From: an uncultured virus (IMG/VR IMGVR_UViG_3300009163_000001)
Lineage: Duplodnaviria > Heunggongvirae > Uroviricota > Caudoviricetes
Strand: one strand, 5' to 3'
Virus record (IMG/VR): IMGVR_UViG_3300009163_000001
DNA length: 64,000 nt
Program-made: the position numbers and the translations under genes
Part shown: piece by piece, positions 5,531-61,893 of the stretch
Layout of the letters: every line of letters starts with the position of its first letter
How positions within the stretch are numbered: the first letter of the stretch is position 1
The notes under the pieces: generated by a model
The model's database searches: none
Told to the model about the DNA's origin: nothing
The model's input: only the letters and a program-made list of their open reading frames with translations

Positions 5531-5544
5531 GAGTCAGCTGCTAT

Positions 5545-5581: not shown

Positions 5582-5672
5582 GCGGCTTCTACTTTATGTA
5601 AGTTATACTGCTACTTAAGGGACATCACTCCATATTTAGATGCTAGATATGGATAACTAATAAGGAGATACT

Positions 5673-43211: not shown

Positions 43212-43738
43212 CGATAATGAACTATACGCCTACTGAGTTGGCTTGTATTGTTGAACAAACCCAACAACAAGAGATTGTAATAGTAGAGCAGGATCTAGTT
43301 GTAAAACATAGACTTGATCTTGTTGAGATGAGCTTACAAAATGAAAAGGTCAGGGAGATAGAGCGTATAGTATTAAAGATGCCTCAATTGATTATTGAGA
43401 TTAATGATTTCATACACGGTAAGATGTATTCACGGACTATGTTCTGTCCAGCGGGTGCTATTGTAACTGGGGCATTAACTAAAATAGATAATATCTGTAT
43501 TATGCATGGTGATGTTACTGTTACAACTGATTATGGATTACAAAGGTTTACTGGATACCATGTGCTGCCATCTTTTGGTGGCGGTAAGAGAGCTTTGTTA
43601 TTCCATGCTGATACTTATTGGACTACTCTTATTCATACAGAAACAAAAGATTGTAAAATAGCCGAAGAAGAATTTACCGATGAGGCAGAGATGCTTCAAT
43701 CAAGAAAAGAAAGAAAAGGTAAAACATGGCAGGAGTAA
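43208..43738 (+). CDS. cupin-like hypothetical phage protein
   Basis: F...MYSRTMFCPAG..VTG..., G.KR.L..H.DT.WTT.H pattern. Confidence 0.7.
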   Translation: MTIMNYTPTELACIVEQTQQQEIVIVEQDLVVKHRLDLVEMSLQNEKVREIERIVLKMPQLIIEINDFIHGKMYSRTMFCPAGAIVTGALTKIDNICIMHGDVTVTTDYGLQRFTGYHVLPSFGGGKRALLFHADTYWTTLIHTETKDCKIAEEEFTDEAEMLQSRKERKGKTWQE

Positions 43739-44385
43739 TAGCTGGTGCTTTAGTTATTGGTGGTTTGGCGGCGGCTTCTGGGATTCTTGGGGGCATAGGA
43801 GCAAACCAGCAAGCCGCTGCTGCTGCTAAACAAGCACAAATGGCTAAGGAGAATGCTGAGTTTCAGCGTAGGTGGACTGTTGATGCTAACAATAGAAATA
43901 TTCTAAAGAATAACCTTGCTAAAGCTATTGCTAATAAGCAGATTGAAACTTTAGCAATCAGCCAACGAGCGATTGCTGAAGTGTATGGTAAGATGGGCTT
44001 TGATAATGCTAAGAGTCAGTACAGCAAACAAACAAGTCAAGTTAATTCTGCTCTATTAAGCAGTGTATCTAGTCGTGGTATGTCCTCATCGTCTGGTACT
44101 GCAAGAGCATTGCTCAGACAGAATATTGCAAACTCACAAACCAACATGGCTAATTTACGGATTACACAAATGAATAAGAATCGTGATATTGAAACCTCAT
44201 ATCAAAACACATTGAATAAACGAGACTTTAATTATACAGAACTGCAAACATTCTTACATGGAGATACTACTGTTAATAGTGGACAAACTAGTATGGGGAT
44301 GATCTTGGGGATGTCAGCACTTAGTGGATTGCAAGCTGGTGTTAGTGCTAATCTTATGTATGGTAAACCCGCAGCTCCCGCATAA
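43726..44385 (+). CDS. internal virion protein (gp14-like)
   Basis: Gly/Ala-rich hydrophobic ends, Gln/Asn-rich helix, RG...SG motif. Confidence 0.7.
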   Translation: MAGVIAGALVIGGLAAASGILGGIGANQQAAAAAKQAQMAKENAEFQRRWTVDANNRNILKNNLAKAIANKQIETLAISQRAIAEVYGKMGFDNAKSQYSKQTSQVNSALLSSVSSRGMSSSSGTARALLRQNIANSQTNMANLRITQMNKNRDIETSYQNTLNKRDFNYTELQTFLHGDTTVNSGQTSMGMILGMSALSGLQAGVSANLMYGKPAAPA

Positions 44386-44410
44386 ACCAACAAGCATAAG
44401 GAAATAAAAT

Positions 44411-45463
44411 ATGAACCAAGATTTAATGAACCAATTACAACAAATAGCAAGTGGTAAGGTATACTCTGGATCTGATAGTTATGATAAGATCAATGAGGTA
44501 AAAGCTGGAGATCTTAAGAAGAAGCTAAACCAACTAGAGTCTAATATTAAACAAATGTACCCAACAAAACCAGACAAGGTATTTGAGACATTCAAACAAC
44601 AGACTAAGGATATTGCCTTACCAACCGACAGCATCAAAGAGTTCTACTGGAACAAGTATTTAGACATGCATCCAGATGGTCGTGATGCCGCTAAGAAATT
44701 GCTTGTTAGACAAATAGAACAAGAGATGAATATGTTCAACAGTCCAGCCGAAAAGGAATTCTTCCTGCGTGATAAGATCTCTAGGTTTCCTTCTTGGCTG
44801 ACTAAGGAATTCAAAGGTGATGTACAAAACCTAGCCTTTAGAAACTCTTACAGTAACCTCAGCAAGTCAAAGCAAGTCTATAAGGACGATCTTTCAAAGA
44901 GACTTCGTAAGTTGGCTGACCGACAACTAGACCCAGATGTGGGTGAGGAAGCCCATGTAAATGATCTTATGAAGCTTGAGAAGATGAACCTAATGGATGT
45001 TGCTGATTCTCTCAATGGTCGCTTTGGTGTTGCCGATAAGAATGGTAACTTCAATCCAGCCTTTGATCTTAGAGATAGATCACAAGTATTCTCTAATGAT
45101 TCCGAGAGTACCCCAGGACCTGATGAACAACTGATGGTTGATGATTTAGCACCGCCGTTTATTAGAGACTATGTTAAGGGTAACTTGGCTAATCAACGGA
45201 GTCGTATCAACATGGATAACAAGGCATCTGAAGGTGTTGCTGGTATGATGCTTGAGCAAGGTAAGTTTACTATTGATAAGTGGGGAGAGGCTTTCTCTAT
45301 GTTTGCAAAGCCAAATTATCCTCTATTGATTGAGCGTGGTCTTAGGGGTGAGATCAACTCTGGTCGTGTACACAGCGACGAAGATTTAACTAAAGCTATT
45401 TACATGGCTACTAACCAATACAAAGACCTATTAGGAGACATGAACAATGCCACCAACGCCTGA
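44411..45463 (+). CDS. putative internal virion protein
   Basis: TAAGGA SD; helical composition; position. Confidence 0.6.
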   Translation: MNQDLMNQLQQIASGKVYSGSDSYDKINEVKAGDLKKKLNQLESNIKQMYPTKPDKVFETFKQQTKDIALPTDSIKEFYWNKYLDMHPDGRDAAKKLLVRQIEQEMNMFNSPAEKEFFLRDKISRFPSWLTKEFKGDVQNLAFRNSYSNLSKSKQVYKDDLSKRLRKLADRQLDPDVGEEAHVNDLMKLEKMNLMDVADSLNGRFGVADKNGNFNPAFDLRDRSQVFSNDSESTPGPDEQLMVDDLAPPFIRDYVKGNLANQRSRINMDNKASEGVAGMMLEQGKFTIDKWGEAFSMFAKPNYPLLIERGLRGEINSGRVHSDEDLTKAIYMATNQYKDLLGDMNNATNA

Positions 45464-48400
45464 GCAATTACAAATAGATATTAATCAGAACTTAGTACCA
45501 CAAGCCACACAAGTAGCACCAACTATTATTGATCCAAGTAATACAGCGGCAGTTACTCCAGAGGGCGTAGTATCTATGCCAGAACCACAGCAGTGGATTG
45601 GTGGTATTGATTATGGTATGAACTGGTATGCATTAGGAGCTAAAGCATTTGATGTGGCTGGTAATATATATGAAAAAGTACTTGATTACAATATACAGAA
45701 GAAGGGTGCTGAGGTAGCTGATGCAATCTTCGACAGTGAAACTCAAGTCTACGATAGCTTTAACGCCACCCAACTAGATGAATCTGGTAATGAAGTACCA
45801 CATGATATCAACAGTATTACTAAGTTTTATGAAGATAAACAAACACAACTGCGAACAAAAATTAATGAGATTATTGGTAATGATATCTTTGATCCTAATT
45901 TTACATTTGATGGGTATGGCTCAAAATGGTTTCCAGTTATTGATGGTGCAAGAAAGGGGTACTCAGAACTAGCAAAGGCTGGTCAACGAGTACAAAGAGA
46001 TACACTTGTAGCAGCCAAAGAACAACAAGATATTTTTACGGCTCTTGATGCTAATAGAAAAGGTCTTCAAAAAACCTCTAAACAAACAACTATGGTAGAC
46101 GACCTATATGTTAGTAAGCGACAAGAATTAGTTAATAAAACTGTTTTTACAATCCCAGCTAGTACAGACAATAGCGGAAGATATGCAAATGAAAAAACAA
46201 CTATTATTGATAAAGAAAACGGTACTTTAACCGTACAATCTTCGTTTGCAGATTTACCACCAATAGAACAACAAAGATTAGTTTCGTCAGTGTCAGATGT
46301 ATTTCAACCAGCAGCTGGTCAAAGTATTACACCATCTCAATCAAAATCTTTCCACGAGTTAGCTACATCAGATCTTTCTATTATGAATCAAAATGAACTT
46401 GCTTGGGATATGATAAGCCTTTCATCATTACCACCATCTCAATTTAATGCAATGCTTATTTCTGGTCAAGATTTAGACGCACAACAAAAAAATAGATTAT
46501 CATTTATAAGAACACTTGGGTTTTCTGGAATGCCTAACAGTAAAATTGTATCTTTTGTAAAAAGTACACCACCAGATGTTGCTGCCAAAGTAGCTAATAT
46601 AGTTTCTTATATGTCAAACAATAATCCAACAACAAATTTACCACACGCTTCTGATGCTGCTGCATTAGAAGCTAATATTTTTACTGGTATTAGCCCAGAA
46701 TTTAAATTAACAAACGATCACGAAACAATTCAAGCTATGTCTAGTAGATATCCTAGTGTTCGTGATTACATAGCAACAGTTGCGTATATTTCTAATCTGC
46801 CAATTGAGCAAGTAGAAAAAGATAAGTCTATTAATTTAATCAGAGAACAGTTTAATGCTAATCATGCAATGATAAAATCGGGTGAGATAGAAACTTTAAT
46901 TGATATAAGAAATATTCCAGTTCTTTCAGCTCCTTTATCTGGACCACTAGATAGAATGATTAAGGAAAGTATGCCTGTGGGTTATTCGGGAATGGGGACC
47001 ATGAAAACACAGGATAAAATTATAATGTATCATTCAGCTCAATTAGCTACCGTGACATATAATGGTAATACAGAAGCTTTAGTAAATAACAGAGAAAAAA
47101 GTTTTGATAGTACATATAATACAACTCATGTTATTGTAAATAATAGAATAGAAAATATTATAAAAAGTGAGTTCTTAAAATTAAGATCGCAAACTAAAGA
47201 TAAAGAAACTGGTAAACAAGTTACTGGTGGCTTAACAGATAGCCTTATACTTCAATATGTTCTTGCATCATCAGATCAAGCATTAGCTAATTTTAATGGT
47301 GGAAAAACACCAGTAACAGAAGCAGAAATTTTAGCTGCTTACAATAAAGGAATGGCAAGTATTGGACCAGCACATTCTTGGAAGTGGGATGTTGATACCA
47401 CCACTGATTCGGAAGTATCAAGAATAAAACAAGACGGTACTTCTAGTGTTCCGATGCGACTTAAATCAATCCCAATAAGAACTAACGATATGTCTAATGG
47501 TACTGGTGGTTTTTCTAATTTATTAGATAACAATACAATTTTTCCATCAGATAATAAAGATCGTCTTATTAAAAATAGCGGTGGAAAACCAACCTATGCT
47601 TTAACAAGTAATAAAAATGTTTATGGAATGATAGATATAACTGGTCAACAAGAAGATCTTGCTGAGTTTGTAGCTTCTACTAAAAGTGGTAAAGCTCCAG
47701 TAACATTTAGAAGTGGGGATATAGATCAATTTGGTCTCGATCATTATGTAGACCAACCTAAAACAAAAGAGCAAATTGTTTTTGAAGTATCTAATAATTT
47801 AATAAGGGAAGTTAGAAATACAAATCTGGATACAAGCTTTCTTGGTAGTGATCCTAAATTAGATAGTAGAGAAAAATTTAAAATGGCAATCTATAAAGAC
47901 CAACCATTTTTAATTCATCATACTGCTACTAAATTGGGAATATCAAATATACAAGCAACCAATATTGTGCATGAGTTATTAACTGATGAGAAATATTTAG
48001 ATACTATTTATAATAGAAATGTAGATGATACATATCTACATGCATTAGCTGATACTACAATCACTATAGCTCAGTTTCAAACCAATAACTCAATCTTACC
48101 ATCACTTAAAATACCAGAAGCTCAAGCTCCAACCTTTACAACCGAAATATTACATCAACCAAACCAACAGATAACTAACGAACCAATAACACCATCACCA
48201 GTAGTTTCTACACCAGTAGAAACACTAGATCAAAAGAAAGAACGATTTAAAAAAGAAGGAATGACTGACGCAGATATAGAAAGAATGTTAAAATTTAAAT
48301 CTGTAAATCCAGATGCAGTAAGTCCTGGATCTGTTCGTGGGTCTAACGCTAGTGACTTTATTTCTAAACAAGAAGGCTTTAGAACTGATGCCTATTGGGA

Positions 48401-48794
48401 TAAGACTGGCTGGGCTATTGGTAATGGCTCTCGTACTAAGTTAGATGGAACTCCTGTCAAAGAAGGAGATAAGGTTACAAAAGAACAAGCTACTACAATG
48501 TTAAATAACTATGTAGATGCTGTTCGGTCTAAATTAGAGAAGGAAGTTCCAACTTGGAATGAATTAAATATGAATCAACAAGATGCTTTAATTTCATTTG
48601 GGTATAATGTTGGTCCAGATTTTTATGGTAAGAAAGATTTTGAAACAATCACTAAAGCGTTATCTACAATTGATACATTAAAGACAGTTCCAGATGCTAT
48701 TAAATTATATAATAAATCTGGTGGTAAAGTTCTTAATGGGTTGATCAATAGAAGAAAAGCAGAAATTGATCTTTGGAATTCAGTAGTTCGATAA
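45447..48794 (+). CDS. internal virion protein with C-terminal GH24 lysozyme domain
   Basis: From about 48348: EGFRTDAYWD, IGNG, NQQDALISFGYNVG, GGKVLNGLINRRKAE. Confidence 0.85.
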   Translation: MPPTPEQLQIDINQNLVPQATQVAPTIIDPSNTAAVTPEGVVSMPEPQQWIGGIDYGMNWYALGAKAFDVAGNIYEKVLDYNIQKKGAEVADAIFDSETQVYDSFNATQLDESGNEVPHDINSITKFYEDKQTQLRTKINEIIGNDIFDPNFTFDGYGSKWFPVIDGARKGYSELAKAGQRVQRDTLVAAKEQQDIFTALDANRKGLQKTSKQTTMVDDLYVSKRQELVNKTVFTIPASTDNSGRYANEKTTIIDKENGTLTVQSSFADLPPIEQQRLVSSVSDVFQPAAGQSITPSQSKSFHELATSDLSIMNQNELAWDMISLSSLPPSQFNAMLISGQDLDAQQKNRLSFIRTLGFSGMPNSKIVSFVKSTPPDVAAKVANIVSYMSNNNPTTNLPHASDAAALEANIFTGISPEFKLTNDHETIQAMSSRYPSVRDYIATVAYISNLPIEQVEKDKSINLIREQFNANHAMIKSGEIETLIDIRNIPVLSAPLSGPLDRMIKESMPVGYSGMGTMKTQDKIIMYHSAQLATVTYNGNTEALVNNREKSFDSTYNTTHVIVNNRIENIIKSEFLKLRSQTKDKETGKQVTGGLTDSLILQYVLASSDQALANFNGGKTPVTEAEILAAYNKGMASIGPAHSWKWDVDTTTDSEVSRIKQDGTSSVPMRLKSIPIRTNDMSNGTGGFSNLLDNNTIFPSDNKDRLIKNSGGKPTYALTSNKNVYGMIDITGQQEDLAEFVASTKSGKAPVTFRSGDIDQFGLDHYVDQPKTKEQIVFEVSNNLIREVRNTNLDTSFLGSDPKLDSREKFKMAIYKDQPFLIHHTATKLGISNIQATNIVHELLTDEKYLDTIYNRNVDDTYLHALADTTITIAQFQTNNSILPSLKIPEAQAPTFTTEILHQPNQQITNEPITPSPVVSTPVETLDQKKERFKKEGMTDADIERMLKFKSVNPDAVSPGSVRGSNASDFISKQEGFRTDAYWDKTGWAIGNGSRTKLDGTPVKEGDKVTKEQATTMLNNYVDAVRSKLEKEVPTWNELNMNQQDALISFGYNVGPDFYGKKDFETITKALSTIDTLKTVPDAIKLYNKSGGKVLNGLINRRKAEIDLWNSVVR

Positions 48795-48848
48795 TTAACT
48801 AACACAACTTATTCATGGCACGAAAGTTCCCAGAAAGGTATTACACTT

Positions 48849-51800
48849 ATGAGCGAGAAGAATATTGATATTAATGAATTAAACGCACCAGCTGATATTA
48901 GACTTGGTGGTTTATATAATCCAGAGCCAACTCCAAGAGAACCAGAACTTAAGTACAACGCTACAGTACCTTACTATATTGGTAGATCAGTTAACAATAT
49001 TTTGCCATCAATAATGTCTGTGTTAACAGAACCACTTACTGGTGACGGCATAAACCCATATACTGAAGATGCTAATAACGCTAGAATGGGGATTGCTCCA
49101 GATACATTGTTATCTTCAATGTCTAATATAGCTAATTGGAGTAAGAATATAAAGACACAACAAGATCTATACCCATCCTTTACAAGCAGTCCTTCTGATG
49201 CTGCTTTTGATGAACAACTTAGAATTGAAAACATGGTTAATGGTGGAACTACTTCTGGAGCCATTGGTAGATCAGTAGATCAAACAGCACAAAAAAGATT
49301 AATTGCTGGTTATTATCTTAATCCATATTTTAAAATTAATGCAAACCAACAATTAATTGAGAATCGAGATGGGTTTGAACAAAGATATGACGAGTATGCT
49401 GCTAGTGTTAAATTAACAAATGATGATAGATTCCTTAAAGAAATGAACGCAACAGATTCTAAGTTAGCAAGCACGAATGTAAAAGATGCTAAGTTACCAG
49501 AACTAAAATTACTTAGTCAGAAAGAGTTATATGAGGGGCTTAAGAATTTTAATGAAACTGGAGCATGGGGTAGGTATGTTGCAAACCTTTCAGCAGAAGA
49601 TGGTTTGTTTTCTCTTGGTTGGGTAGTCAAAGATATTTTAACTGGCTTTGGAATGGCTAATCCACTTAATAAAGTTGAAGGTGGTTTTGAATTAGCAACA
49701 TATCAAAACCCGTGGAATATTATGGAGACTCCAGTTGTCTCACTTGGTAAAGATGTTATAGACTATGTAGCTAAAGAAGATCCAAACTTTAACGGACCAG
49801 AGTGGTTCTCACAACTAGAACTTCCAGTAGAAGTTCGACACCAAATGTTATTAAATGGTATTGATACTTCGTCTTTTATTGGATCTCGTGGTAAAAATGA
49901 AGCTTTATTTACACTACAAAACTTAATGTTTACTACAACTCTTAGAGATAAGTATGAAAACTTTTTAAAGAAGAATGAATTTTGGAATAGTAAAACAGGA
50001 TCACTAATAAAAATTGGTGTGTCTTTGCCCAACATGATTGCATCTGATCAAGATACTGTACTAGCTGTTGGAACATCCTTATTAAGTGCTGGTGTATCAT
50101 TGGTATCTAAAGGAACAGCGATGACTTTAGGTGCAATGAAGCTTACTGGAGCAGCAGCTAATACAATGAAAACCACTGGAGTAGTACTCAGTGGTCTTGG
50201 AACAGCCACAGCTTTATCTACTGGTGGTATCCCTAGATTTTTAAAGTATGCAAATTGGGGTACAAAACTTGGCTATAGTATTGGTACTGGTTCTTTAATT
50301 ATGGTTGCAAGAAACTTTAAAGATCAACAAAACAAAATAGCCTTTACTGTTGCTGGTTTAGAAGAGCAAGGTAAATATTCTTATGACTTATCGGAAGCAG
50401 CAACATCCGCATTTGAAGGTGCTATATTTGGTGGTGTAATGCATGGTGTGCATGAGGGTGCTGGTTATTTAAATAATAAAATTAGAATTGAATTAAACAA
50501 TGGTATTGATTATAACAGTTATACCATTAATGGACCAAACACCAAAATGAGACCAGCGGTTACTGATCTTTATTTCGGAGAGAAATTTAAAGAAGCTCAG
50601 TTATTAGATAGACCTGCTGGTAAATACCCACCACTACTTCCTTTCCTCAAAGCTAAGGTAAGTAAAGAAGAAAGACGACAATATGATCAAGTTGTCCTTG
50701 GTTTAACACCAGAACGACAACTCAATTTAGATAGTTTAACTGATACTTTGATTGCTGAAAGTAATAGTAAAGTACCAGAACCAACACCACTTAAAGAAGT
50801 TATGATTAATGGTGTAAGACATTTGTTTGAGGCAAATGAGGTAACACCAGTATCTAGTACTGAACACGCACAACATCTTCAAGAACCAGCAACCATTAAA
50901 AGTAGATATGGTAATTATTATTTTAGAGATGGTGATACTAATATGTATATAGAAACACCAGAAGGAGTTGTAAAAACAAATAATGACAATGTTGGTTTTG
51001 CAGAATATCAAGCAAACAAACCAATAGAACAAGAGCTTCCAGTAACACCACTAGCAGAAGGTGAGAAGTTAGCTGTAGCCAAGGACTCCTTCAGTGATCG
51101 CTCTACACTAGTAGAAGCCACCGACCTAAGGGAAGTACCAGAATCTGGTATCTTCTCAAGAGTTGAGGGTGAAGCCCCAGTAGCACATGCTGTGAGGTTA
51201 CTTAATGCAGACCAAATTGGTGGTGTATTAGATATTCATCCACTTACAGAAGGTTTTGGAGAAGGTAGACTTGAAGCAACTAAACAATTATCTGCTTACA
51301 AAAAAGCATTACGGATCTTAGAGTTTATTAATGAGAATAGAAATGAATCTCTGTCGGATCAACTTGAGTTATTTGGTGTGGGTCTTGACCCAAAGATAGC
51401 AGAAAAATTACCACAATTAATTAAAGAACTTAATAGTGTTATTAAACAAGTTGAAGAACACACAGCTGATCAAGTAGCTAAAGACTGGTCTCCAGAAGTT
51501 TCTAGTTCTATGACCAAGAATCAAAGAGTAACCTTTCAAGAAGATTTAAGTTATCAAAGAGCTAGGTTAGAATCTGGAGTAGAACCAAAACAAATCTATA
51601 AAGCATTAGATCAAGCTGTTGAGGATGGGACATTTACAAAAAACTATAGAGACGCTATTGTAAAAGTTCTTACAACCCTTGGTGAGTTACCTAAAGAAGA
51701 AGTACCTGAGGTAACTAGCGCAAAACCAACAGTTAAAAATCAAGTTCGTAGAAGACTTGCTAAGATTGAAACTAGTAGTAATGATAGGGTTATTAGACAA

Positions 51801-54800
51801 ACTACTCAACGATTTAAAAGTGTGTTTAATGATAAACAACAAGCTAAAGCAAGGGCTGCATATAAAAAACCATATGGATCTAATAAAGCAAAAAACGGAT
51901 TTATTAAAAACTTTAGTAAGCGATTAGCAAAAAATGGTGTTTCAATTGACACAAGAATTGAAGCTGTTAAATTATTAAGTGCTAGTTTAGCTAACTTAAA
52001 AGTAGGTCCAGCCCAATTACTTATGTGGGTGGATAAAATAAAAACAATAGATGTTAATCCAGATGGATATCGAGGTCAAGCTACAGCAAGTATTGTTCCA
52101 AAAATTGATATTAAACTAGGTAAAAACTATGCTTCTGAGTTAAGCGTAAACCAAGCACCAGAAGTAGTTAAGTTAACTTTACATGAACTTGGTCATATTT
52201 ATTCATATTTATTTTCTAGTGTAGAAGAACAAAAATTAAACGATCTATATACTAAATATGTTGATGTATATACTGTTAAAAAATATATGCTTAATGAGAA
52301 TGCTTTGTTTGGAAACGCATATCATTTAACAAAACAAAATAAATACAACATATCAAACCTAAGTGGAAGTATATTAAGTGATAACTTTTCTTATGATTTT
52401 AAGGGTGTTGATGAATTTTTTGCAAATATGTTTCAGAGTACACTTTATAATGAAACAATAAATGCTTTAAAAACAACACCAAGAAATAAACCTGTAAGTC
52501 TGTGGCTTATAGACTCATTAGTTCATTTTAAAAATACATGGAACTCTATTAAAAATATAGTTAGTGATGATAATTTAAATGGATTAACAAAAGGAATTTT
52601 TGAACTAATTAAAAAAATAGATAAACAAACTTATTTAACTGGTGAAGAAGCTCTAATTAGAGAAAGAGTATCAGCTAAAATTCAATTTCGTCTTGCTCAA
52701 AACTCTTCTTTAGTAAATTTAACAGACCTTCCAAATTTTAATGGTTTATTATCATATAGAAATTATAATGAACAGCTTGGTACTAGATTATTAAATATGT
52801 TATATGATCCACAAAGCGAAAAGTTATTATCTAGTTTAGTAGATATGGAAAATCATACAAGCGAACAAGCCCGAAGTCTTGCACTTGATACTATAAGAGG
52901 AAGAATAGAAAAAGAAATTAATAATCTTGTTGGTGTTGTGGAGGGTGGAGAAGCACATGCAGATCCATTTACTGAAATATTTAGAATGACTAGTGGTTTT
53001 GAGGTAGATACGAACACTGTAATTTGGAAACAACTTGCTTATATGCTTGATTCAGACGGTAGTATTCGTGATGTATTAAAACAACCTACTGAATTTATTA
53101 TATCAGATAATATGGAATCATTTCCTGGTTCTAAAACAGAACCTAAAACAACCATAAATGAATATGATTTAGAATCAAGATTGGTTGTTGCGTCTATATT
53201 TATGCCTCATAGAATATCAGAAATATTACAAACTTGGCAACGATCAGCACATGATACTAATATTATTGGAATGGGATTAGAAACTAATGTATCTAATTTA
53301 AATGTGATGTCAAATACTGCAAAGATTGTAGTTAGATATTTAGACATTAGAAAATCTGTTGATGATTATAAAGCAACAGCTTTTGCTTATGCTGTACCCG
53401 ATTTATTTAAGGATAACAAATCAAACAGAGCATTCTATACAGAGTTTAGTAGTATTGCTGATTTTGTAAATATGTTACACTCAAATGAAAATGCTGAGGT
53501 TAATATAAACACATTGCAAGATAGATTAATTTATTTATCAAAAGAAAAGTATGCAGTTGGAGATCCAATTGCTGGTAGTTATCTCCAACAATTTTTATTT
53601 TTAGATGATATTCTAGAACATTTAAATCAAGAGTTTGGTATTCGATTAAAAGAAAAACAAAACATATTTACACCAGAATTAGATCGTGGGGCTAAAGAAG
53701 TTATTAATGATTTAATAACAAGTCCATTTATACCAAACAATAGAAAATATGAAATTATTAACCTGTCTGTTCGTGGCGGTAAAACTAAACATGGTTTTAA
53801 TTCTTTCTTTGAAGTTGCAGCAGATCTTGATAGAAATGATAATCTTAGATCTATGGTTTATGGTTTTCTTGATAAACTAAATTTAGATGGTGTTACATTT
53901 GACACTCGTTTAAAAGAAGCTTCACTACGCTTATTAGATACTAGTGATATAGATAAAAAGGTTATTGAAACAGAAGATTTATTTACACTAGCTAGATTAA
54001 TTGCTAATGAAATTCTTGGACCAGATAAGGTAGAAATTGTTAAACAAAATATTACTACTAGAAAAAAACTACTCAAGGCAAAACCAGAGTTAGTAGAAAA
54101 AATTAAAACAAAGCAACAAGAAGTAGCTGTTGCTAAAATTAAAGCTGCTTCAGTTAAAGTTAAAACAGAACCAATAAATAATAACGAAGTATCTGAGTTA
54201 CTTGCTGACGCAGCCAGTGAACCACTAACGGCAGATGAAACCGCAGTCACAACAAATAACTGGAAAACAAATCCAAAAACAACTACTACTGATGTAGTGA
54301 GTGGGGAAATTGGATTAACTAAAGCTAAAAACTTTAGTTATTTATCTGATGGTCCTATGTTAACTGTGGTTGATATAAGCTTGTTAGTTAGTACAAAAGG
54401 TAATATTCTTCGTAAAGTATTATTTTCAGCTCTTGGAAAAATGAGAGGAAAGCTTTCAATTGAGGGTAAAGAAGATATGCTAAGTGAGTTAGGATTAGCA
54501 ATTCAATATGAACCAACTACTAAAAAAGCTTATGAAACTATTCTTGCTGATGGAAAAGATGTTAAACCTAGAATTGTAGGTCTATCTAAAAAAGTTTTAT
54601 TTAATGCTATTCAAACTAAAATTAGAAACGAATCTATTTTATCATCAACTGGTGAATCACAAAAGAAAGAAAATAGTATTATTGGTCCTGATGGAGAATC
54701 AATGGACTTTGCTCAAGTTGTTAATAATAAAAGAAGAACAACCGAAAGAACGCTAAATGAAGCAATGATGGCTTTAAACCAAGTAGGATTAACAAAAGAT

Positions 54801-57800
54801 ACAATAGATAAATTTGAAACATTTTCTAGATTACGATTAACTCCTGGCTCTACTGAAAAAAGCGTAGCTGAAATAATGGGTATGACTGAAGACGCTATGA
54901 ATAAACTTGTACATAGAGTTAAAGAAGCTTTTAAAAAAAAACAAATAACTATAGATATTTTAGATGGTAAGATAACTGATATTAACCCACAACAATTAGC
55001 TAGTCGAATGGCTAGAATAGAACTTGAAAATTCTACAACAACAGAATTAGCTAACCCAATTGAGGCTGCAAAAAAAGCAATTAAACCACTTAGAGAAAGA
55101 ATGGCTATTGCAACTAGAAGAGAAGCAACAGCAGAAATATTTAAAGATGCTGTTGTTGATACTAGCACTGAACCAAGTGTTGCTATGCCTATTGTTAATA
55201 AGTCAAAAACAAAAGAAACTATGTATGCTACTACACTAGATGGTACTAGTGAATCTGTACCAAATGGGACTGTATTAGTAGCACACGAAATTGCTACAAC
55301 AATTGCAGAATCAAAACAAGCTGAGATAACAACTCAAGTTGTTGTTGATATAACTAAACCAACTATTGAATTAGTAGCTGGTAATGGACTTGTAGATACA
55401 CTTAAAAATACACCAGCATCTGTATTTGAAGAAGTTGGTCTTGAAAAAGAAGCACTCATTGAAACTTTGGTTGCTGTAAATAATCCAGAAGAAGTATTAA
55501 TGAATATTTTAAAAGAAAATGAAGTACCACCAGCAACAATTACTATTACTAATAAAGCAAAAAAGACAAAGGCTATTATTGTTTTAGAACCAGAGGTTGC
55601 AAAGGTAACTGGTGTTATCGACAATACTGTTGAATCTCCAACTGTTAGAAATGTTGGAACAGAACCAGCTAAAGTAGATCCAAGTATTGTTATTGAATCT
55701 ACTGTTAAGAACCCTGAGAAAGAAGTTATTATTTTTGATAAGTCTACTGGTGAGTCTCCTGATTTAAAACCAATGATTGTTACTGGCACTAGTGATAGAG
55801 TTGAACTATCTCCTATTGATAAGTTTGATAGTGAAGTAATGGCTGGTAAGGAAATGCTTAGACTTAATGGACAAGATCCAAAGTTTATAAAGTATTTCCT
55901 ATTGAAGTTTAACAAACTATCTTCTGCTCTAGTTAAGAATATTGGAGTTAAGATTGATGCTATACCAAAAGAATTTGAAAACTTATTGGCTGAGATACAA
56001 TCTTATTATCTTGCTATTAGTGAGCATAATAGAAGTAACTTTCCAGATTATGTATTTAATAGTCTTAATGATAAATTTTGGAAAGAGTTTGATAAACAAG
56101 TTGTTGCTGATCTTGCCGCTAGAGCTACACCACTTTCTGAAATGAAACCAAAAAAACTTGGTGAAATTATTAAAGCAGCATCTGACAAAGTAAATGAGTT
56201 TATAGCTTATCATAATAAAGTAGAAATAGGCAGTGTAAAACCTGAGCGTGTTTCTCTTTGGGCTGAATTCTTACCACCTATTTCTCCAGATGACTTTATC
56301 TTAAGTACACTACAAACCGCAAAGGATGTAAATGAAAGTACCTTTATAACTGAAGTAAGACTAAGACCAAAGAGTGAAGGTGAGCGGTTATTTAAAGCAG
56401 CAAAGCAAAAAAGAATAACAGCAAAAACTATTGTTGAAGATTTCAAACTAACTCCGTTAACAGAACCAATTGAATCTGCTAAGCCAACTGAGGTTCCTAA
56501 GCCAACCGAAGCTGCTAAGCCAACCGAAGCTGCTAAGCCAACCGAAGCTGCTAAGCCAACCGAAGCTGCTAAGCCAGTAAAAGAAATAGATACAGTTGAT
56601 ACTATTACTGAATCTCTTGCTGATGATTTAAAGAAAAGAATGGAAGATAAAAAGAATAGTAAAGATCGTAATGGCTTCCTACGAAATTGGTGGATAAAGT
56701 ATTCAGATATGCATACAATGCATCACACATCTCTTAATTGGTGGTCTAGATTTTGGAGAGGATCAGCTAAAGAAATTACTGCTGATGCTAATATGATCTC
56801 TAGGTTTATGAGATTATCAAGTGGGCTTATTGCAAACAGGTCTGCCGAAGGAAAAACTATTCGTAGTTTAAATAATGTAATGCGGCTTATATCTTCATTC
56901 GCAGAAAATGGAAAGTTAATGTCTCATCAATTTGTCAAAGTTGGAATAGAAGCGTTTAAAACATTTGAAGCTTGTGCTTCTCAAAACTTTAGAGAAATCA
57001 TTCCATTGTACGACGCTCAAACAAAGTTTAATAACGCTGTTGGTCATATGCAAATGGCTAGAGATCTACAGTGGAACATGATTAAAGCTAAGGCAAAGAC
57101 AAAGGGTGTCTTAGTTGATAGCGAACTAGAGAAAATTATATTAACTCATAAACCTAAGGCAACAAAAGAATTTATTAAGACAGTTATTCAAAGAGCAAAG
57201 GAACTACAGCAAGTAGATATTAATGATAATAAATTATTGATTGATCTAGAAGTTAAAACTAAATGGGGTAGAATGGTTGACCGTAATGGAAAACAAATGG
57301 ACCCAAATGAATACCATAGTATGACGGTTGATTCTAATTTAGTTGGAACTCAAAATAGAACTACTATATTAGAAGCTATGGCAGATGTCCGTAGTCAAAC
57401 ATTGTTATCGGAAGATACACTAGATGGTAATATTATGTTTGGTATGGGTTGGTTAACTGAAGGTACTAAGAAGAATAGAACCATTTGGTCAAGAGATAAT
57501 AGATCAGGTGTCCAAATAAGTGACATGGCTGATTCTCCTTTTGATAGAACAACTTTAAAAATGTTGGAAGCAAAAGCAAAACTAGATGGAGAAAATCGGT
57601 ACGCCCCAGGAACAGACTTGGAAAAGATTTGGCAACTGAACGACAAGAACAATCATAAATATTTTTCATACATTGATCCAGCTACTTTAGAAGTTGTGAT
57701 TTGTTCTATGCCAGAAGTAAAAGCTGAGTTAAGTGCTGGAGATTTACTGAAGTATAACGAAACGGTTACTGGTAGCTTAGATCATTTATCTCCATTTTGG

Positions 57801-60020
57801 TTGGATCGCTTTAGAAACAAATCAGTACTAGAAGTAACTATGGAAGAACTATTGCAGTACAAAACAAGAACTGGTAGTTATTCGCCGCATAACACCGCAT
57901 CAGATACTGGTAAGGCTGTAATAGGATTGTTTGGTAGGGGTAATACATATGAGGGATTTGCTGTTAGAAATCTTTCTATTGATGAAGTCCTTAACAGTAA
58001 AGTTCTTAAGGATATCTTTAGGTATGAATACTTTTCAACAAAGAAAAACTTTAGACAGAGCAGAGGATTTGAATTATTAGTACAACGAGAAATTGATAGA
58101 CAACTTGGTGTTACTGGATTTAGGGCATCGGAATTCTTTGAGTCTGGTAGACAAATAGCTTTAGAGGGTGCTGGGTCAAACGATAAGATGGTTGACCATA
58201 TCAACGGAGGCTTTAGTAGAATCTCTGATGACTACAATTCGTATGCTGGTAATCTTCCATCCATCAACAGTAAATATAATAATGTAGATCAGGTTGTATC
58301 TAATATTGGTACAAACATTATTAAGATTGCTTCAGCACCAAAGTGGGCAATCAGAAGTTTAGCTGAGCCTATGGTATTATTAACAGATGAATTAGTTGGT
58401 AGAAATTTTGGTGATAGTATCAATGGAGTATTTAATATATTTAAACAATATATTATGCGTGATAAAAAATCATTTGAAAAAAATTCAGTTAATAATTTAA
58501 TCTTTGGAATGAGAGAAGTTATGAACCATCAAGAAAGATTCTTATCAGAAGCCGATGATATTCTTTCTTCTTCTCTTGGCAGAAATAGATGGGTAGATAG
58601 ATTACTAAGAACAAAAGAAAATGGAACTGTTATTGAAAAAGCTTTTGATATTGGTGGAAACTTTGGAGTAGAGGCTGGAGGCAGCAGGGAATTAAGCACA
58701 GCTGCTAGAGGTATTGCTATTGTAAAGTTTGTAAGAGAGTTTGCGCTTACAATTGACAAGGCTCAAGAACTTTTAGTTCTTATGCAAAAACCAGAGAATA
58801 GAAAAATAGCTGCTGAGTTGAATCAACTATCCAGATCAAAAACATCTGGAAGTGTACAATTAAGCAAACACTTTAAGACACTTGCAAGAGAAGCTAGGTT
58901 TGGTGGTGACTGGGCAACAGCTGCTCAGTATGTCAGATTTAATTTACTTAATAAGGAAACACTGGATGCTATTGCATTTGCATTTAAAGATATGGGTGTT
59001 CGAGATGGTCGGGTTGATATGGCTAAGTTTAGAGAGTGGACACAAGCATATACAACAAATGGTATTGGTCCAATCTCTAAAGAAGTTATGCACCAAGCCT
59101 ACCACGATTTTGCATATGCAATAGAAACTAGAGTAGGAACGGATGGTATGATCTCTGAAGCAAGAGGCTTAAATAGAGATCTGAGTATTGCTAGTAGGAC
59201 ACCACTTGGTCGGTTTATGAAAAGCTTACTACAATGGTCATCTTCGTACTCAAGTAATGTATTACAGAATGGTGGTTTAATGACACCAGCTGGAGTTATT
59301 CTTAAAGCCATTATTATTTATAATGTATATACATACCTAACTGATTTATTAGTAGAGTATGCAAGAGGTAGAGATCCAAAAGATATTGTGAAGGAACTAC
59401 AAGATCCTAAGACATATGTATTTAGAATGGCATCAGAAACGCCAGTACTAGGTAGGTATCAATCCTTGTTATCAGAAGGTCTTGCAATGTCATCAGCATT
59501 AACTGGTGGCAAGTTTCAATCGTTTGGCGTATCAACCAATGTTCCAGCTGCAAGCGTTGCTAATGCATTTATTAGGAAATGGGGCAAGTCTGTTAAAGCT
59601 TTAGCAACTGAAAAGAATCTAACTGCTGGAGAAGTAGCTGGTCATATTGGTAATATCACAGGAGTTAACAGTTTAGTCAATGGAAGTCCAATTGGTGTTG
59701 GTGCTTCTACTATGCAACAGATGGGTATTATCCAACAGCATGATGCTCTTAGCGATTATCTTAAGATTGCTAGAGGAAACCCAGCATCCCTAAATAAGTA
59801 TGGTGGCGTACAACCAGCAAGCAATACTAACTATGACTATAGTCCTAGCTCTGAAACTCAATACGAACTTAAGAGAAGAAAGACTTATGAACAGATGAAG
59901 CAAATAGAGAAGCTTAATAAGATCATGGAGAAACCCAAGTCATTAACACCCATGATGATTAATATCAAGGGTGTCTCCTATGATCTAGCCAAGAAGCTGA
60001 ATGAGATGAACCAGCAATAA
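48849..60020 (+). CDS. giant internal virion/ejection protein (3723 aa, gp16 position), multi-domain
   Basis: Last gene of the internal virion cluster; HELGH...DEFFA zincin motif; sigma-like HTH; AKPTEA repeat. Confidence 0.75.
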   Translation: MSEKNIDINELNAPADIRLGGLYNPEPTPREPELKYNATVPYYIGRSVNNILPSIMSVLTEPLTGDGINPYTEDANNARMGIAPDTLLSSMSNIANWSKNIKTQQDLYPSFTSSPSDAAFDEQLRIENMVNGGTTSGAIGRSVDQTAQKRLIAGYYLNPYFKINANQQLIENRDGFEQRYDEYAASVKLTNDDRFLKEMNATDSKLASTNVKDAKLPELKLLSQKELYEGLKNFNETGAWGRYVANLSAEDGLFSLGWVVKDILTGFGMANPLNKVEGGFELATYQNPWNIMETPVVSLGKDVIDYVAKEDPNFNGPEWFSQLELPVEVRHQMLLNGIDTSSFIGSRGKNEALFTLQNLMFTTTLRDKYENFLKKNEFWNSKTGSLIKIGVSLPNMIASDQDTVLAVGTSLLSAGVSLVSKGTAMTLGAMKLTGAAANTMKTTGVVLSGLGTATALSTGGIPRFLKYANWGTKLGYSIGTGSLIMVARNFKDQQNKIAFTVAGLEEQGKYSYDLSEAATSAFEGAIFGGVMHGVHEGAGYLNNKIRIELNNGIDYNSYTINGPNTKMRPAVTDLYFGEKFKEAQLLDRPAGKYPPLLPFLKAKVSKEERRQYDQVVLGLTPERQLNLDSLTDTLIAESNSKVPEPTPLKEVMINGVRHLFEANEVTPVSSTEHAQHLQEPATIKSRYGNYYFRDGDTNMYIETPEGVVKTNNDNVGFAEYQANKPIEQELPVTPLAEGEKLAVAKDSFSDRSTLVEATDLREVPESGIFSRVEGEAPVAHAVRLLNADQIGGVLDIHPLTEGFGEGRLEATKQLSAYKKALRILEFINENRNESLSDQLELFGVGLDPKIAEKLPQLIKELNSVIKQVEEHTADQVAKDWSPEVSSSMTKNQRVTFQEDLSYQRARLESGVEPKQIYKALDQAVEDGTFTKNYRDAIVKVLTTLGELPKEEVPEVTSAKPTVKNQVRRRLAKIETSSNDRVIRQTTQRFKSVFNDKQQAKARAAYKKPYGSNKAKNGFIKNFSKRLAKNGVSIDTRIEAVKLLSASLANLKVGPAQLLMWVDKIKTIDVNPDGYRGQATASIVPKIDIKLGKNYASELSVNQAPEVVKLTLHELGHIYSYLFSSVEEQKLNDLYTKYVDVYTVKKYMLNENALFGNAYHLTKQNKYNISNLSGSILSDNFSYDFKGVDEFFANMFQSTLYNETINALKTTPRNKPVSLWLIDSLVHFKNTWNSIKNIVSDDNLNGLTKGIFELIKKIDKQTYLTGEEALIRERVSAKIQFRLAQNSSLVNLTDLPNFNGLLSYRNYNEQLGTRLLNMLYDPQSEKLLSSLVDMENHTSEQARSLALDTIRGRIEKEINNLVGVVEGGEAHADPFTEIFRMTSGFEVDTNTVIWKQLAYMLDSDGSIRDVLKQPTEFIISDNMESFPGSKTEPKTTINEYDLESRLVVASIFMPHRISEILQTWQRSAHDTNIIGMGLETNVSNLNVMSNTAKIVVRYLDIRKSVDDYKATAFAYAVPDLFKDNKSNRAFYTEFSSIADFVNMLHSNENAEVNINTLQDRLIYLSKEKYAVGDPIAGSYLQQFLFLDDILEHLNQEFGIRLKEKQNIFTPELDRGAKEVINDLITSPFIPNNRKYEIINLSVRGGKTKHGFNSFFEVAADLDRNDNLRSMVYGFLDKLNLDGVTFDTRLKEASLRLLDTSDIDKKVIETEDLFTLARLIANEILGPDKVEIVKQNITTRKKLLKAKPELVEKIKTKQQEVAVAKIKAASVKVKTEPINNNEVSELLADAASEPLTADETAVTTNNWKTNPKTTTTDVVSGEIGLTKAKNFSYLSDGPMLTVVDISLLVSTKGNILRKVLFSALGKMRGKLSIEGKEDMLSELGLAIQYEPTTKKAYETILADGKDVKPRIVGLSKKVLFNAIQTKIRNESILSSTGESQKKENSIIGPDGESMDFAQVVNNKRRTTERTLNEAMMALNQVGLTKDTIDKFETFSRLRLTPGSTEKSVAEIMGMTEDAMNKLVHRVKEAFKKKQITIDILDGKITDINPQQLASRMARIELENSTTTELANPIEAAKKAIKPLRERMAIATRREATAEIFKDAVVDTSTEPSVAMPIVNKSKTKETMYATTLDGTSESVPNGTVLVAHEIATTIAESKQAEITTQVVVDITKPTIELVAGNGLVDTLKNTPASVFEEVGLEKEALIETLVAVNNPEEVLMNILKENEVPPATITITNKAKKTKAIIVLEPEVAKVTGVIDNTVESPTVRNVGTEPAKVDPSIVIESTVKNPEKEVIIFDKSTGESPDLKPMIVTGTSDRVELSPIDKFDSEVMAGKEMLRLNGQDPKFIKYFLLKFNKLSSALVKNIGVKIDAIPKEFENLLAEIQSYYLAISEHNRSNFPDYVFNSLNDKFWKEFDKQVVADLAARATPLSEMKPKKLGEIIKAASDKVNEFIAYHNKVEIGSVKPERVSLWAEFLPPISPDDFILSTLQTAKDVNESTFITEVRLRPKSEGERLFKAAKQKRITAKTIVEDFKLTPLTEPIESAKPTEVPKPTEAAKPTEAAKPTEAAKPTEAAKPVKEIDTVDTITESLADDLKKRMEDKKNSKDRNGFLRNWWIKYSDMHTMHHTSLNWWSRFWRGSAKEITADANMISRFMRLSSGLIANRSAEGKTIRSLNNVMRLISSFAENGKLMSHQFVKVGIEAFKTFEACASQNFREIIPLYDAQTKFNNAVGHMQMARDLQWNMIKAKAKTKGVLVDSELEKIILTHKPKATKEFIKTVIQRAKELQQVDINDNKLLIDLEVKTKWGRMVDRNGKQMDPNEYHSMTVDSNLVGTQNRTTILEAMADVRSQTLLSEDTLDGNIMFGMGWLTEGTKKNRTIWSRDNRSGVQISDMADSPFDRTTLKMLEAKAKLDGENRYAPGTDLEKIWQLNDKNNHKYFSYIDPATLEVVICSMPEVKAELSAGDLLKYNETVTGSLDHLSPFWLDRFRNKSVLEVTMEELLQYKTRTGSYSPHNTASDTGKAVIGLFGRGNTYEGFAVRNLSIDEVLNSKVLKDIFRYEYFSTKKNFRQSRGFELLVQREIDRQLGVTGFRASEFFESGRQIALEGAGSNDKMVDHINGGFSRISDDYNSYAGNLPSINSKYNNVDQVVSNIGTNIIKIASAPKWAIRSLAEPMVLLTDELVGRNFGDSINGVFNIFKQYIMRDKKSFEKNSVNNLIFGMREVMNHQERFLSEADDILSSSLGRNRWVDRLLRTKENGTVIEKAFDIGGNFGVEAGGSRELSTAARGIAIVKFVREFALTIDKAQELLVLMQKPENRKIAAELNQLSRSKTSGSVQLSKHFKTLAREARFGGDWATAAQYVRFNLLNKETLDAIAFAFKDMGVRDGRVDMAKFREWTQAYTTNGIGPISKEVMHQAYHDFAYAIETRVGTDGMISEARGLNRDLSIASRTPLGRFMKSLLQWSSSYSSNVLQNGGLMTPAGVILKAIIIYNVYTYLTDLLVEYARGRDPKDIVKELQDPKTYVFRMASETPVLGRYQSLLSEGLAMSSALTGGKFQSFGVSTNVPAASVANAFIRKWGKSVKALATEKNLTAGEVAGHIGNITGVNSLVNGSPIGVGASTMQQMGIIQQHDALSDYLKIARGNPASLNKYGGVQPASNTNYDYSPSSETQYELKRRKTYEQMKQIEKLNKIMEKPKSLTPMMINIKGVSYDLAKKLNEMNQQ
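56478..56576 (+). repeat. 18-bp in-frame tandem repeat
   Basis: CTAAGCCAACCGAAGCTG four times (56497-56568) with degenerate flanking copies; encodes (KPTEAA)n. Confidence 0.95.
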
Positions 60021-60032
60021 GAGTGTGTATTA

Positions 60033-60054
60033 CCAATAGTTGGGGCTATAGATA
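60033..60054 (+). promoter_or_regulatory. putative phage RNAP promoter at the right end (phiOR-like)
   Basis: CCAATAGTTGGGGCTATAGATA just after the last structural gene, facing non-coding DNA. Confidence 0.8.
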
Positions 60055-60600
60055 ATACCTAAGGGTATACCTTAGGGATAGTCGAGATCTAAAGATCTCC
60101 TATAGGTTATGTATTTAATTATATTAATACTAATCTATAGGAGATCTTAGTCCGAAGTACAGTTAAGTCTATGGGTTACTTAGGATACCTTAGGGGTCGT
60201 AGTTAGGTACTACTCCCTGTCGAGATCCTTGGTCCCATCCCTGTCGATCTCCGACGGTTCTAGGGGGTTCGGTGCTATACACATCAACAACAACCTGTAT
60301 ACAAATCCAGGATATCTATGCATGTTCCTTGGTTTAACATGGGTGACCGCCCTGTCCATAATATACTGTGAGTTACTTTCAGGATACGCAAGTATTGCAC
60401 AATACATAGACCCTGTGTACCGTTGGGTCTCCCGACACTTATTACGACAATGTGTCGGGACAGCTAGTACGCCATTGGTGACCTAGTAACCCCCAGCCTG
60501 TACCCTAGTACGCCATTGGTGGCTCTTTAGTAAATCGACTTAGGGGTCGAGAATTTATAGACCACCTCTATCCCATGTTGTACTCCCGCCGTCCCCCCAT
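60055..60600. other. probable genome-end / concatemer-junction region
   Basis: Non-coding; 18-bp hairpin 60092-60148; direct repeats TCCCTGTCGA (60214, 60238) and CTAGTACGCCATTGGTG (60464, 60505); lies between the last late and first early gene. Confidence 0.55.
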
Positions 60601-60655
60601 AGCCCGATAACCACGGCGATTGCACATAGTCCCATAAGTCACTAATTTAATATCC

Positions 60656-61124
60656 TTGTGGCGGTTTATTCCCTTGAATGATACTTAAGTACTCGGGGAT
60701 ACTAAATACGAAACAAGTGACCATAGAAGTAAATTGTTTCCGCTGATTACATGGTTGAGTTCAATCAACCGTTGCGCCTTGAGCAGACTTATGCTCTCTA
60801 AGGGCTACCCTTCCTTGTTGAAGTTGGGGTAACAACGGACTCGGGATGGTTCAATCGGTTGCTCGGACTGAGCGTAACGGCGTATGCCACCAACTCCGCA
60901 GAGATTCTCTGTAGTGGAGTGATTCATTCAAACACATGAATCGTAATAATTCTAGTTGTTCCTAGAATTGTCTCTTATGCTTGCCTTACGGCTATCCGCT
61001 GAGAGTATAAAGAAACGCTTGGCAACGATTCTGCTTTTTTCCAAGAGCATAGTCCGTTGCTAGGCGTGATTTCCACTAAGATTAGTGGCATTCACGCCGT
61101 TCCCTACAAGGTGTAGGGGATAGC
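60656..61124 (+). ncRNA. candidate large structured RNA / early leader
   Basis: No ORF; more than ten helices with G-U pairs and nested long-range pairings. Confidence 0.55.
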
Positions 61125-61149
61125 AATAATACCTAACATGGAGATACTA

Positions 61150-61462: not shown

Positions 61463-61546
61463 GTAACGATTGCCTACCTCGCCCCATAGGGAAACCTATG
61501 GGGCTTTATAGGTTACCGTTGGTAACTATTAACCCCTAACATGGAG
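61463..61546 (+). repeat. intergenic module copy 1 (GAAA hairpin plus 40-bp repeat with SD)
   Basis: GCCCCATAGG-GAAA-CCTATGGGGC, then 61507-61546, identical to 61854-61893. Confidence 0.9.
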
Positions 61547-61810: not shown

Positions 61811-61893
61811 GTAACGATACTCTATACTCCAAGTGTGGGAAACCACACTTGGCTATAGGTTACCGTTGGTAACTATTAACCCCTAACATGGAG
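61811..61893 (+). repeat. intergenic module copy 2
   Basis: CCAAGTGTGG-GAAA-CCACACTTGG, then the same 40-bp sequence. Confidence 0.9.

Follow-up and report, generated by a model that had tools for sequence, protein, structure and literature searches.

The stretch of DNA analysed here (hereafter the window) comprises 64,000 nucleotides of an uncultured virus (IMG/VR IMGVR_UViG_3300009163_000001; Caudoviricetes) and holds most of a divergent T7-like podovirus genome, with genes for a single-subunit RNA polymerase, primase-helicase, DNA polymerase A, portal, capsid, tail and terminase. The terminase gene is followed by tandem genes for proteins of 176, 219, 350, 1115 (with a C-terminal lysozyme) and 3723 residues, and the last of these, a giant gene, is the last and largest of a podovirus cluster of the gp14-gp15-gp16 type, with one gene more than in T7. 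Within the giant protein, residues 1837-2030 make up a module of about 195 residues in which a sigma2-like domain, a linker and a sigma4-like domain follow each other as in sigma factors of the extracytoplasmic function (ECF) type. A complete ECF-like unit had been proposed at this place from two peptides, without database searches (hereafter the sequence-only reading). Both peptides are present, in the proposed order, at residues 1848-2033 (54390-54945) of the open reading frame 48849-60020, and the completeness of the unit is borne out by the family match of an orthologous copy, by homology between module groups, by profile controls and by an AlphaFold model.

In direct family scans the giant protein as a whole is without any Pfam, NCBIfam or PDB sequence family, and the window's own module gives solely sub-threshold matches (Sigma70_r4_2, E 0.07; KorA, E 0.012; the RpoE-like NF041236, E 0.002). 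The orthologous module of the homologue P0009 matches the sigma70-ECF model TIGR02937 nearly end to end (E 1.3e-6, model positions 18-163 of 165), and the copy in the related record G004 matches the model at E 7.1e-5; in all, two records out of five match. The window's module group is homologous to that of P0009 over both domains (hhalign probability 90%, E 1.7e-6, 166 columns). Against an ECF profile built here from 13 ECF sigma factors (E. coli and plasmid records), the window's group reached a probability of 58.6% (E 9.5e-5, 154 columns), and the ten-row alignment A2, described below, 90%. The same profile ranked the module stretch first of 35 segments along the protein (probability 44%, E 2.4e-4, 152 columns; alignment of P0001, P0002, P0004 and P0005), the best non-overlapping segment having a probability of 2%. 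Module alignments scored 34.6 and 46.1, compared with maxima of 16.5 and 18.6 in 25 column shuffles; a reversed control for the first of them gave 12.1. The remark of the sequence-only reading that region 4 gives the closer match is also right at the sequence level: taken alone, region 2 of the window's lineage fell outside the top 6 of 72 segments when compared with ECF region 2, and ranked first of the 72 (E 4.8e-4) once distant lineages were pooled. In the ESM Atlas, a 207-residue piece lay at 0.95-0.97 near clusters of about 200 residues, the 30 best of which share no family; the nearest named clusters were Sigma70_ECF (23% of members), Sigma70_r2 (48% and 100%) and Sigma70_r4_2 (96%), and the N-half (region 2) alone had no usable match there. 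A word-seeded homologue search with the module returned none of 774 candidates, the P0009 module found none among 435 candidates of stand-alone length and none by tblastn against plasmids, and PDB sequence searches gave nothing but KorA, HemS and a designed helix-turn-helix repeat.

The AlphaFold model built with the ten-row alignment (mean predicted local distance difference test, pLDDT, 72; a single-sequence model with pLDDT 48 was set aside) consists of a five-helix domain (model residues 1-95), a disordered linker (93-128) and a helix-turn-helix domain (130-194), that is, a predicted sigma2 fold followed after a short flexible linker by a sigma4 helix-turn-helix, without a sigma3 domain. 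In the PDB, the nine best Foldseek rows are all chain F of M. tuberculosis initiation complexes (178-194 columns, E 0.006-0.1); seven of the nine are named ECF sigmaH, sigmaL or a chimera and are largely the same protein. In the viral library BFVD, phage ECF-like sigmas were matched with a best E of 0.004. A second fold search over 48,161 chains, independent of Foldseek, placed the N-domain closest to sigma2 of Bartonella RpoE (5uxx_C; Z 7.4, root-mean-square deviation (rmsd) 2.8, 79 aligned) and then to sigmaH (Z 7.3), the best non-sigma chain being Set2 SRI (Z 5.9); the sigma2-like domain compared with 9m98_F gives Z 7.9 (rmsd 3.0, 78 aligned). The C-domain matches sigma4 domains at Z 5-6 (rmsd 1.7-3.5), and XPD ties for it at Z 7.3. 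Sigma70-family chains make up 17 of the 50 rows of this search; 9n9q_C, the dCas12f-sigmaE chain, stands at rank 4 with Z 6.7, tied with other rows, which shows no special kinship. Where the sequence-only reading had placed a sigma unit, the model has two confident domains that match ECF sigma factors best, at modest Z scores (7.4-7.9).

A generic helical bundle followed by an unrelated helix-turn-helix could also yield Z scores below 8 with competitors such as XPD and Set2 SRI, no region 2 signal in the window's lineage alone and a fold model that rests on 10 sequences. Such a coincidence is highly improbable in view of the near-full-length TIGR02937 match of the P0009 orthologue, the share of sigma70-family chains in an unbiased fold search, and the segment and shuffle controls that the module passed. 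Because these individually modest lines of sequence and fold evidence converge, a sigma origin of the module is very likely, and its description as a strongly diverged ECF-type sigma factor unit, by homology and predicted fold, carries our high confidence.

The residues kept and lost bear on what the module may still do. In the hhalign register, D1876 falls opposite D48 of sigmaE, S1879 opposite Q51 and E1880 opposite E52, residues whose conservation is seen in the set of 13 ECFs and which we take to be the region 2.2 contacts to the beta' clamp helices. The D48 column is acidic in 9 of 10 rows; Q51 is kept in two rows, both of one lineage, and is replaced by Ser in the window. The basic -35 contacts of sigmaE are presumably R171-S172-R173 and R176, of which the recognition helix keeps only R176 (R2023), with acidic residues at its start. 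The flap-binding face of sigmaE is made of V131, F132, I135, L151, I181, V185 and I189, and its N80 acts as a wedge, with F64 and W73 forming pockets for the flipped -10 bases (PMC6648896). Four flap-face positions (V131, F132, I135 and I181) are clearly hydrophobic in the module (A1972, M1973, L1976 and F2028), and V185 corresponds to Gln. In region 2.4 two alignments differ by one helical turn: the ECF-profile register sets L1912 opposite W73 and N1919 opposite N80, the other register gives neither, and an insertion blocks alignment of the F64 column. P0009 has Tyr at W73 and Asn at N80; residues like N80, T81 and A82 of the melting helix are kept in P0009 and P0010, N is found in P0001 and P0005, and the N80, +4 and +7 positions of P0005 hold Asn, Asp and Arg, respectively. 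Judged from the aligned columns, polymerase-facing positions of the module are better kept than DNA-facing ones. We would not class the module among the ECF sigma factors, since it stays below the family cut-offs, lacks most of the basic -35 residues and has at most a putative activity; it is better described as an ECF-derived unit in a polyvalent ejection-type protein.

Nine homologues of the giant protein were found among 2085 candidates with its C-terminal third, all nine with the module in the same place. Alignment A2 holds ten rows (seven homologues, P0009 by locus, one partial locus and the window; P0008 was left out as a near copy of P0007). In all ten, sigma2, sigma4, their order and a linker of 30-40 residues persist at identities to the window of 12-34%, and this points to selection on the unit of two domains. 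The module group of P0006 and P0007 aligns with the window's group end to end, if weakly (E 0.0086, probability 4.7%), but not with the ECF profile (E 0.3). Among 29 related records, nine hold the C-terminal part of the giant gene and three match the module profile, all three from the lineage used to build it; seven far more distant giant-protein frames (2111-5131 residues, three of them cut by the region end) gave no module match. P0001 and P0003 are 94% and 92% identical at their two ends, and 34% (sigma2) and 22% (sigma4) inside the module; P0002 and P0003 are 96% identical inside it, and P0006 and P0007 are 99% identical at the C-end and 44-50% inside. By these comparisons, the module is swapped or fast-diverging between near-identical phages. 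The metallopeptidase region of the giant protein is likewise mosaic among relatives, so that the pattern demonstrates cassette exchange, not selection on the sigma part alone. The window's allele occurs in one piece in contigs of two other studies (one spanning 52003-55018 with 111 differences, another 54288-54984 with 23), and is therefore not an assembly artefact. The conservation looked for in related giant proteins holds for the nine homologues and is not detected in three orthologous giants considered below; the mosaicism, like the polyvalent nature of the carrier, had been overlooked by the sequence-only reading.

This extreme divergence across the family could be that of a relic, a sigma-derived fold repurposed as a DNA clamp, spacer or structural part that no longer touches RNA polymerase. 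The scarcity of Q51, confined to one lineage, and the three orthologues without a detectable module fit such a domain, and T7 gp16-C is described as binding DNA without sequence preference (PMC8954989). We nevertheless regard a relic as unlikely, for both domains and the linker length persist together, the acidic recognition helix of P0002-P0004 is poorly suited to DNA clamping, and close relatives exchange the whole module rather than losing it.

The carrier has the marks of a phage-type polyvalent protein, a class defined, together with its zincin motif, by Iyer et al. (2017, PMC5512222). The HExxH and the downstream Glu of a zincin-like metallopeptidase are invariant in the nine rows that cover the motif, which is motif-level evidence, and the region gives no Pfam score over cut-off; ART-PolyVal, an ADP-ribosyltransferase (ART) domain, is over cut-off in three of the nine homologues, immediately N-terminal of the module, and was not found by family scan in the window's protein. 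Since the zincin motif is joined by ART-PolyVal next to the module in relatives, the protein can be assigned from its sequence to the polyvalent class, with effector domains that vary between relatives. Its place in a gp14-gp15-gp16-like cluster, with a lysozyme on the middle gene, suggests that it is probably packaged and enters the cell with the DNA; the lysozyme-bearing protein also matches the internal virion lysozyme motif phrog_2083 (E 5.5e-7). Pfam and PDB sequence scans detected no polymerase domain in the giant protein. In a check for membrane-spanning segments of the kind expected of gp16, no 19-residue segment has a hydropathy above 1.5 in P0001, and one or two do in each of the four homologues checked. 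Residues 2545-2578 (about 56460-56580) consist of a six-residue Pro/Glu/Lys/Ala tandem repeat whose copy number differs between populations, a flexible hinge preceding the conserved C-terminal domain. In the relatives L062 and L064, about 107 residues (P0009 1576-1693) are present in one and missing in its 97-99% identical sister; this slot precedes the sigma-like module, where other relatives have the ADP-ribosyltransferase.

T7 gp2 inhibits or redirects the host polymerase during packaging, and the module might likewise act late on that polymerase, being cut off before or during assembly and not injected. The giant gene is late, its zincin motif is intact, and P1 DdrB and similar polyvalent proteins are processed before packaging (PMC5512222). 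The module is internal, flanked by conserved parts, and the virion polymerase of N4, which bears a peptidase too, is packaged whole according to the same source, all of which makes a late-acting factor very unlikely.

A 66,145-base contig identical to the window bridges the 1,979-base gap from the window end to the window start; about 11.8 kb of early DNA can thus be measured between the giant gene and the gene for the phage's own RNA polymerase. The sequence-only reading is supported in this respect: the gene that carries the module closes the ejection-protein cluster and is its largest member, and the phage is T7-like and needs the host polymerase for that distance. The features are collected in Table 1.

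Table 1. Features of the window (positions on the 64,000-nucleotide stretch)
Feature	Position	Strand	Basis or detail
Phage single-subunit (T7-type) RNA polymerase	5673..8168	+	PF00940 E 7.6e-87; 26-27% to T7-like phage isolates
Two smaller genes (219 and 350 residues), putative ejection cluster	43726..45463	+	Position; phrog_2867 virion structural protein, sub-threshold (E 0.052)
1115-residue protein with C-terminal phage lysozyme, gp15 position	45447..48794	+	PF00959 E 1.9e-24 at residues 974-1106
Giant 3723-residue polyvalent protein, last gene of virion block (gp16 position)	48849..60020	+	Open reading frame; 9 homologues of 2115-3799 residues
Zincin-like metallopeptidase motif	52179..52424	+	HExxH residues 1112-1116, downstream Glu 1189
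Sigma2-like domain, residues 1837-1931, five helices	54357..54641	+	pLDDT 73-91 per block of ten
Region 2.2-like start of core-binding helix	54468..54494	+	hhalign to ECF profile; columns over 10 rows
Region 2.3-2.4-like helix (L1912 = sigmaE W73, N1919 = N80)	54579..54626	+	Two possible registers, one turn apart
Linker between sigma2 and sigma4, about 33-36 residues, predicted disordered	54642..54740	+	pLDDT <50 at model residues 93-128
Sigma4-like domain (helix-turn-helix), residues 1965-2030	54741..54938	+	Sigma70_r4_2 E 0.07, KorA E 0.012
Non-coding leader before first early gene, likely place of first initiation (inferred role)	60562..61137	+	No sigma70-like enrichment; no bipartite repeat above shuffles

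T7 relies on host sigma70 and strong early promoters, whereas strong early sigma70 promoters do not stand out here: the early leader has 7 sigma70-like sites where 11.7 are expected, without enrichment. Repeated bipartite 5+5 motifs number 4 in the window's leader and 4.65 in shuffles, and of six leaders checked solely that of G010 was marginally above its shuffles (15, maximum 14). The leader of G010 shares 0% with those of G002 and G003, which share 100% with each other, and the leaders of G007 and G004, with different module types, share 54%; leader and module regions are also linked. The G+C content of the leader is 0.46, with 0.54-0.59 in the relatives (G002, G003, G004, G007 and G010) and mostly 0.32-0.42 in the rest of the window, and the early leader is exchanged between near-identical phages.

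The reading that we tentatively prefer, as possible though short of probable, is that a delivered and tethered sigma-like module recruits the host core polymerase to the entering end of the genome. From its fold and partly kept residues, sigma2 would bind the beta' clamp helices of the host core and sigma4 its beta flap, and the complex would start transcription on the DNA coming in. Specificity would probably come mostly from being held beside that DNA, either at the ejection conduit or as a cut-out piece released by the giant protein's own metallopeptidase; proximity is suggested because the DNA-contact residues are eroded and no promoter motif is found. Early expression and transcription-coupled entry of the some 11.8 kb ahead of the phage's own polymerase gene would follow, and the logic of N4, an enzyme on an ejection protein, would be reached through a sigma rather than a polymerase. 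The functions offered by the sequence-only reading (directing host polymerase to early promoters, helping to pull the genome in, or competing with host sigmas) remain alternatives. The apparent loss of W73 and of the basic -35 residues and the missing motif speak against a plain promoter-specific sigma, and on this evidence tethered recruitment or competition gains ground over sequence-specific promoter reading. In a bolder and improbable version, the ejection conduit itself would be an initiation factor: a covalently tethered, promoter-blind sigma would load the host core on the emerging genome end and open DNA with little sequence preference, the host polymerase would serve as an entry motor independent of host sigmas and physiological state, and module alleles would be swapped between sister phages to suit the polymerases of different hosts.

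Competition alone would make the module a decoy, occupying the sigma sites of the host core without initiation. It would thereby lower host transcription (that for stress or defence) or sequester a host anti-sigma factor, acting together with the adjacent ADP-ribosyltransferase in those proteins that have one. The better conservation of core-contact than of DNA-contact positions, fast allele swapping of the kind suited to a host-conflict surface, the ART neighbour in three of nine homologues and the absence of a promoter motif from the leaders checked all accord with it. With T7-type stoichiometry an ejection protein enters in only a few copies, not enough to titrate the polymerase pool of a cell; the phage needs the host polymerase early, and melting-helix residues are retained in P0009/P0010 and, as N alone, in P0001/P0005. 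We hold a decoy to be doubtful.

Several results weigh against tethered recruitment, or against the sigma assignment on which it builds. No module copy reaches a curated cut-off, the best being P0009 (28.2 compared with 42.9 bits for TIGR02937), and, of the two Pfam families named by the sequence-only reading, Sigma70_r4_2 appears below threshold and Sigma70_r2 (PF04542) matches none of five module records. Searching 1.84 billion proteins with the module profile gave no bona fide sigma factor, its nine matches being three family members, five helix-turn-helix-repeat proteins and one unrelated protein. None of 285 Foldseek matches attains E 0.001, and no Z reaches 8 in the fold searches, such values being common according to the tool's own warning. 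In neither register does the window's lineage have an aromatic residue at W73, Lys takes the place of N80 in P0002-P0004, and the net charge of the recognition helix is -3 to +1 over the ten rows, compared with a median of +3 in the 13 ECFs. Neither a cognate promoter nor a repeated promoter-like motif was found in the leaders of the window and five relatives; the giant protein has no sequence link to a known ejection protein, gp16 included, in PHROGs, phage records or PDB sequences; and no relative was found in the species genomes searched for a host. Lastly, none of the orthologous giants in G007, G008 and G010 matches the module significantly, and their helix-turn-helix looks interrupted. 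The RNA polymerase of G010 is 98.7% identical to that of G002, so that, on sequence comparison, a phage closely related to G002 does without a recognisable module copy.

In G007, G008 and G010 (L080, L081 and L082), residues of about 1380-1600 look ART-like by eye, those of about 1610-2000 sigma2-like, and an interrupted sigma4-like part follows. The slot was considered as a sigma2 by eye, in register with ECF regions 2.2-2.4, and found insignificant (E 0.038); compared with other module groups it gives E 0.02-0.35, and the ART-like stretch was unconfirmed by the ART profile. The distant relatives (G011, i.e., L086:7235-19999, and L083, L084, L085 and L088) have giants of 4255 (cut) to 5131 residues, that of G011 with an RNase_H_2 domain over cut-off (E 3.8e-7, residues 3788-3941).

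Compared with known ECF sigmas (M. tuberculosis sigmaH and sigmaL, Bartonella RpoE, E. coli sigmaE and the phage ECF-like proteins of BFVD), the module has the same two-domain layout, predicted fold of both domains, acidic residue in region 2.2 and hydrophobic flap face. Unlike them, it is embedded in a 3723-residue virion-type protein, lies below family cut-offs, has apparently lost the W73 pocket and most of the basic -35 residues, and comes with no identified anti-sigma gene or promoter. With the polyvalent proteins it shares a giant late product, a zincin HExxH domain, ART-PolyVal in relatives and mosaic slots; the transcription modules described for that class are N4-like polymerases and modifying enzymes, among them the injected ADP-ribosyltransferase T4 Alt, which modifies the host polymerase, and the word sigma appears nowhere in the main text of that article (PMC5512222). 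In the N4-like phage DEV, a third ejection protein of about 3500 residues carries a metallopeptidase and a polymerase, and transcription at the cytoplasmic end of the conduit has been proposed to pull DNA in (PMC11445570, PMC13434306). A giant protein with a metallopeptidase motif in the putative ejection cluster corresponds to it here; unlike in N4 and DEV, the giant protein has no polymerase domain, the sigma-like module would borrow the host core, and the genome is T7-like with a single-subunit polymerase outside the virion. In T7, gp16-C on the cytoplasmic side holds the leading DNA until the host polymerase pulls, and entry depends on that polymerase (PMC8954989). The giant gene resembles gp16 in being the last and largest of the ejection cluster of a phage that uses host polymerase for its leading DNA, and the lysozyme sits on the protein in gp15 position as in K1E and K1-5; the protein is about 2.8 times the size of the largest gp16 listed (1337 residues; PMC8954989) and has no detectable sequence homology to gp16. 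A sigma on a protein in gp16 position would join the host-polymerase pull of T7 with the polymerase on an ejection protein of N4-like DEV. In dCas12f-sigmaE, a tether takes the place of -35 reading by an ECF sigma, and its -10 specificity is lowered (10.1101/2025.06.10.658880), a functional analogy for the eroded DNA contacts of the module; unlike in that system, there is no Cas12f or guide RNA, and the tether would be covalent, to an ejection protein.

The routes to first phage transcription comprise host holoenzyme with strong promoters (T7), an injected polymerase (N4) and an injected modifying enzyme (T4 Alt). A sigma delivered by the virion, if true, would be a further one; none was found in the open-access literature searched, and a review of jumbo phages treats phage sigmas as stand-alone genes (PMC7824862). 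Such a phage could start in starved or stressed cells where the primary sigma is scarce, and the replacement of promoter reading by tethering would become testable in a natural fusion, the module of about 200 residues being small enough for work with purified core without a phage isolate. This significance is tempered by an uncultured, host-less phage and an eroded module. The case offers a full two-domain unit with swapped alleles and lost DNA-reading residues, in a T7-like genome that encodes a polymerase of its own.

The ejection-type cluster (41523-60020) follows the terminase gene at the right end of the genome, the cluster in T7 preceding the tail fibre. A DUF932 gene (4514-5530, E 5e-32) lies directly 5' of the RNA polymerase gene, and the sequencing runs containing the stretch are from freshwater or lakes, where labelled. 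In the early region, an exact 40-nt repeat (61507-61546 and 61854-61893) reaches with its end into the ribosome-binding sites of two early genes, and each copy is the final hairpin in a tandem set of three (z -3.6 and -4.1); these hairpins may be processing or stabilising elements. Further strong hairpins precede early genes and the RNA polymerase gene (61040-61140, 62960-63030, 63180-63215 and 5520-5620; z -4.2 to -5.2 for the three folded), several of them with GAAA loops, and the early regions of relatives have repeated hairpins of their own. Two short non-coding elements of the window, 60528-60561 and 60030-60085, recur in all five relatives compared, to which the early region is otherwise dissimilar at the DNA level; they are candidates for genome-end, packaging or terminator signals.

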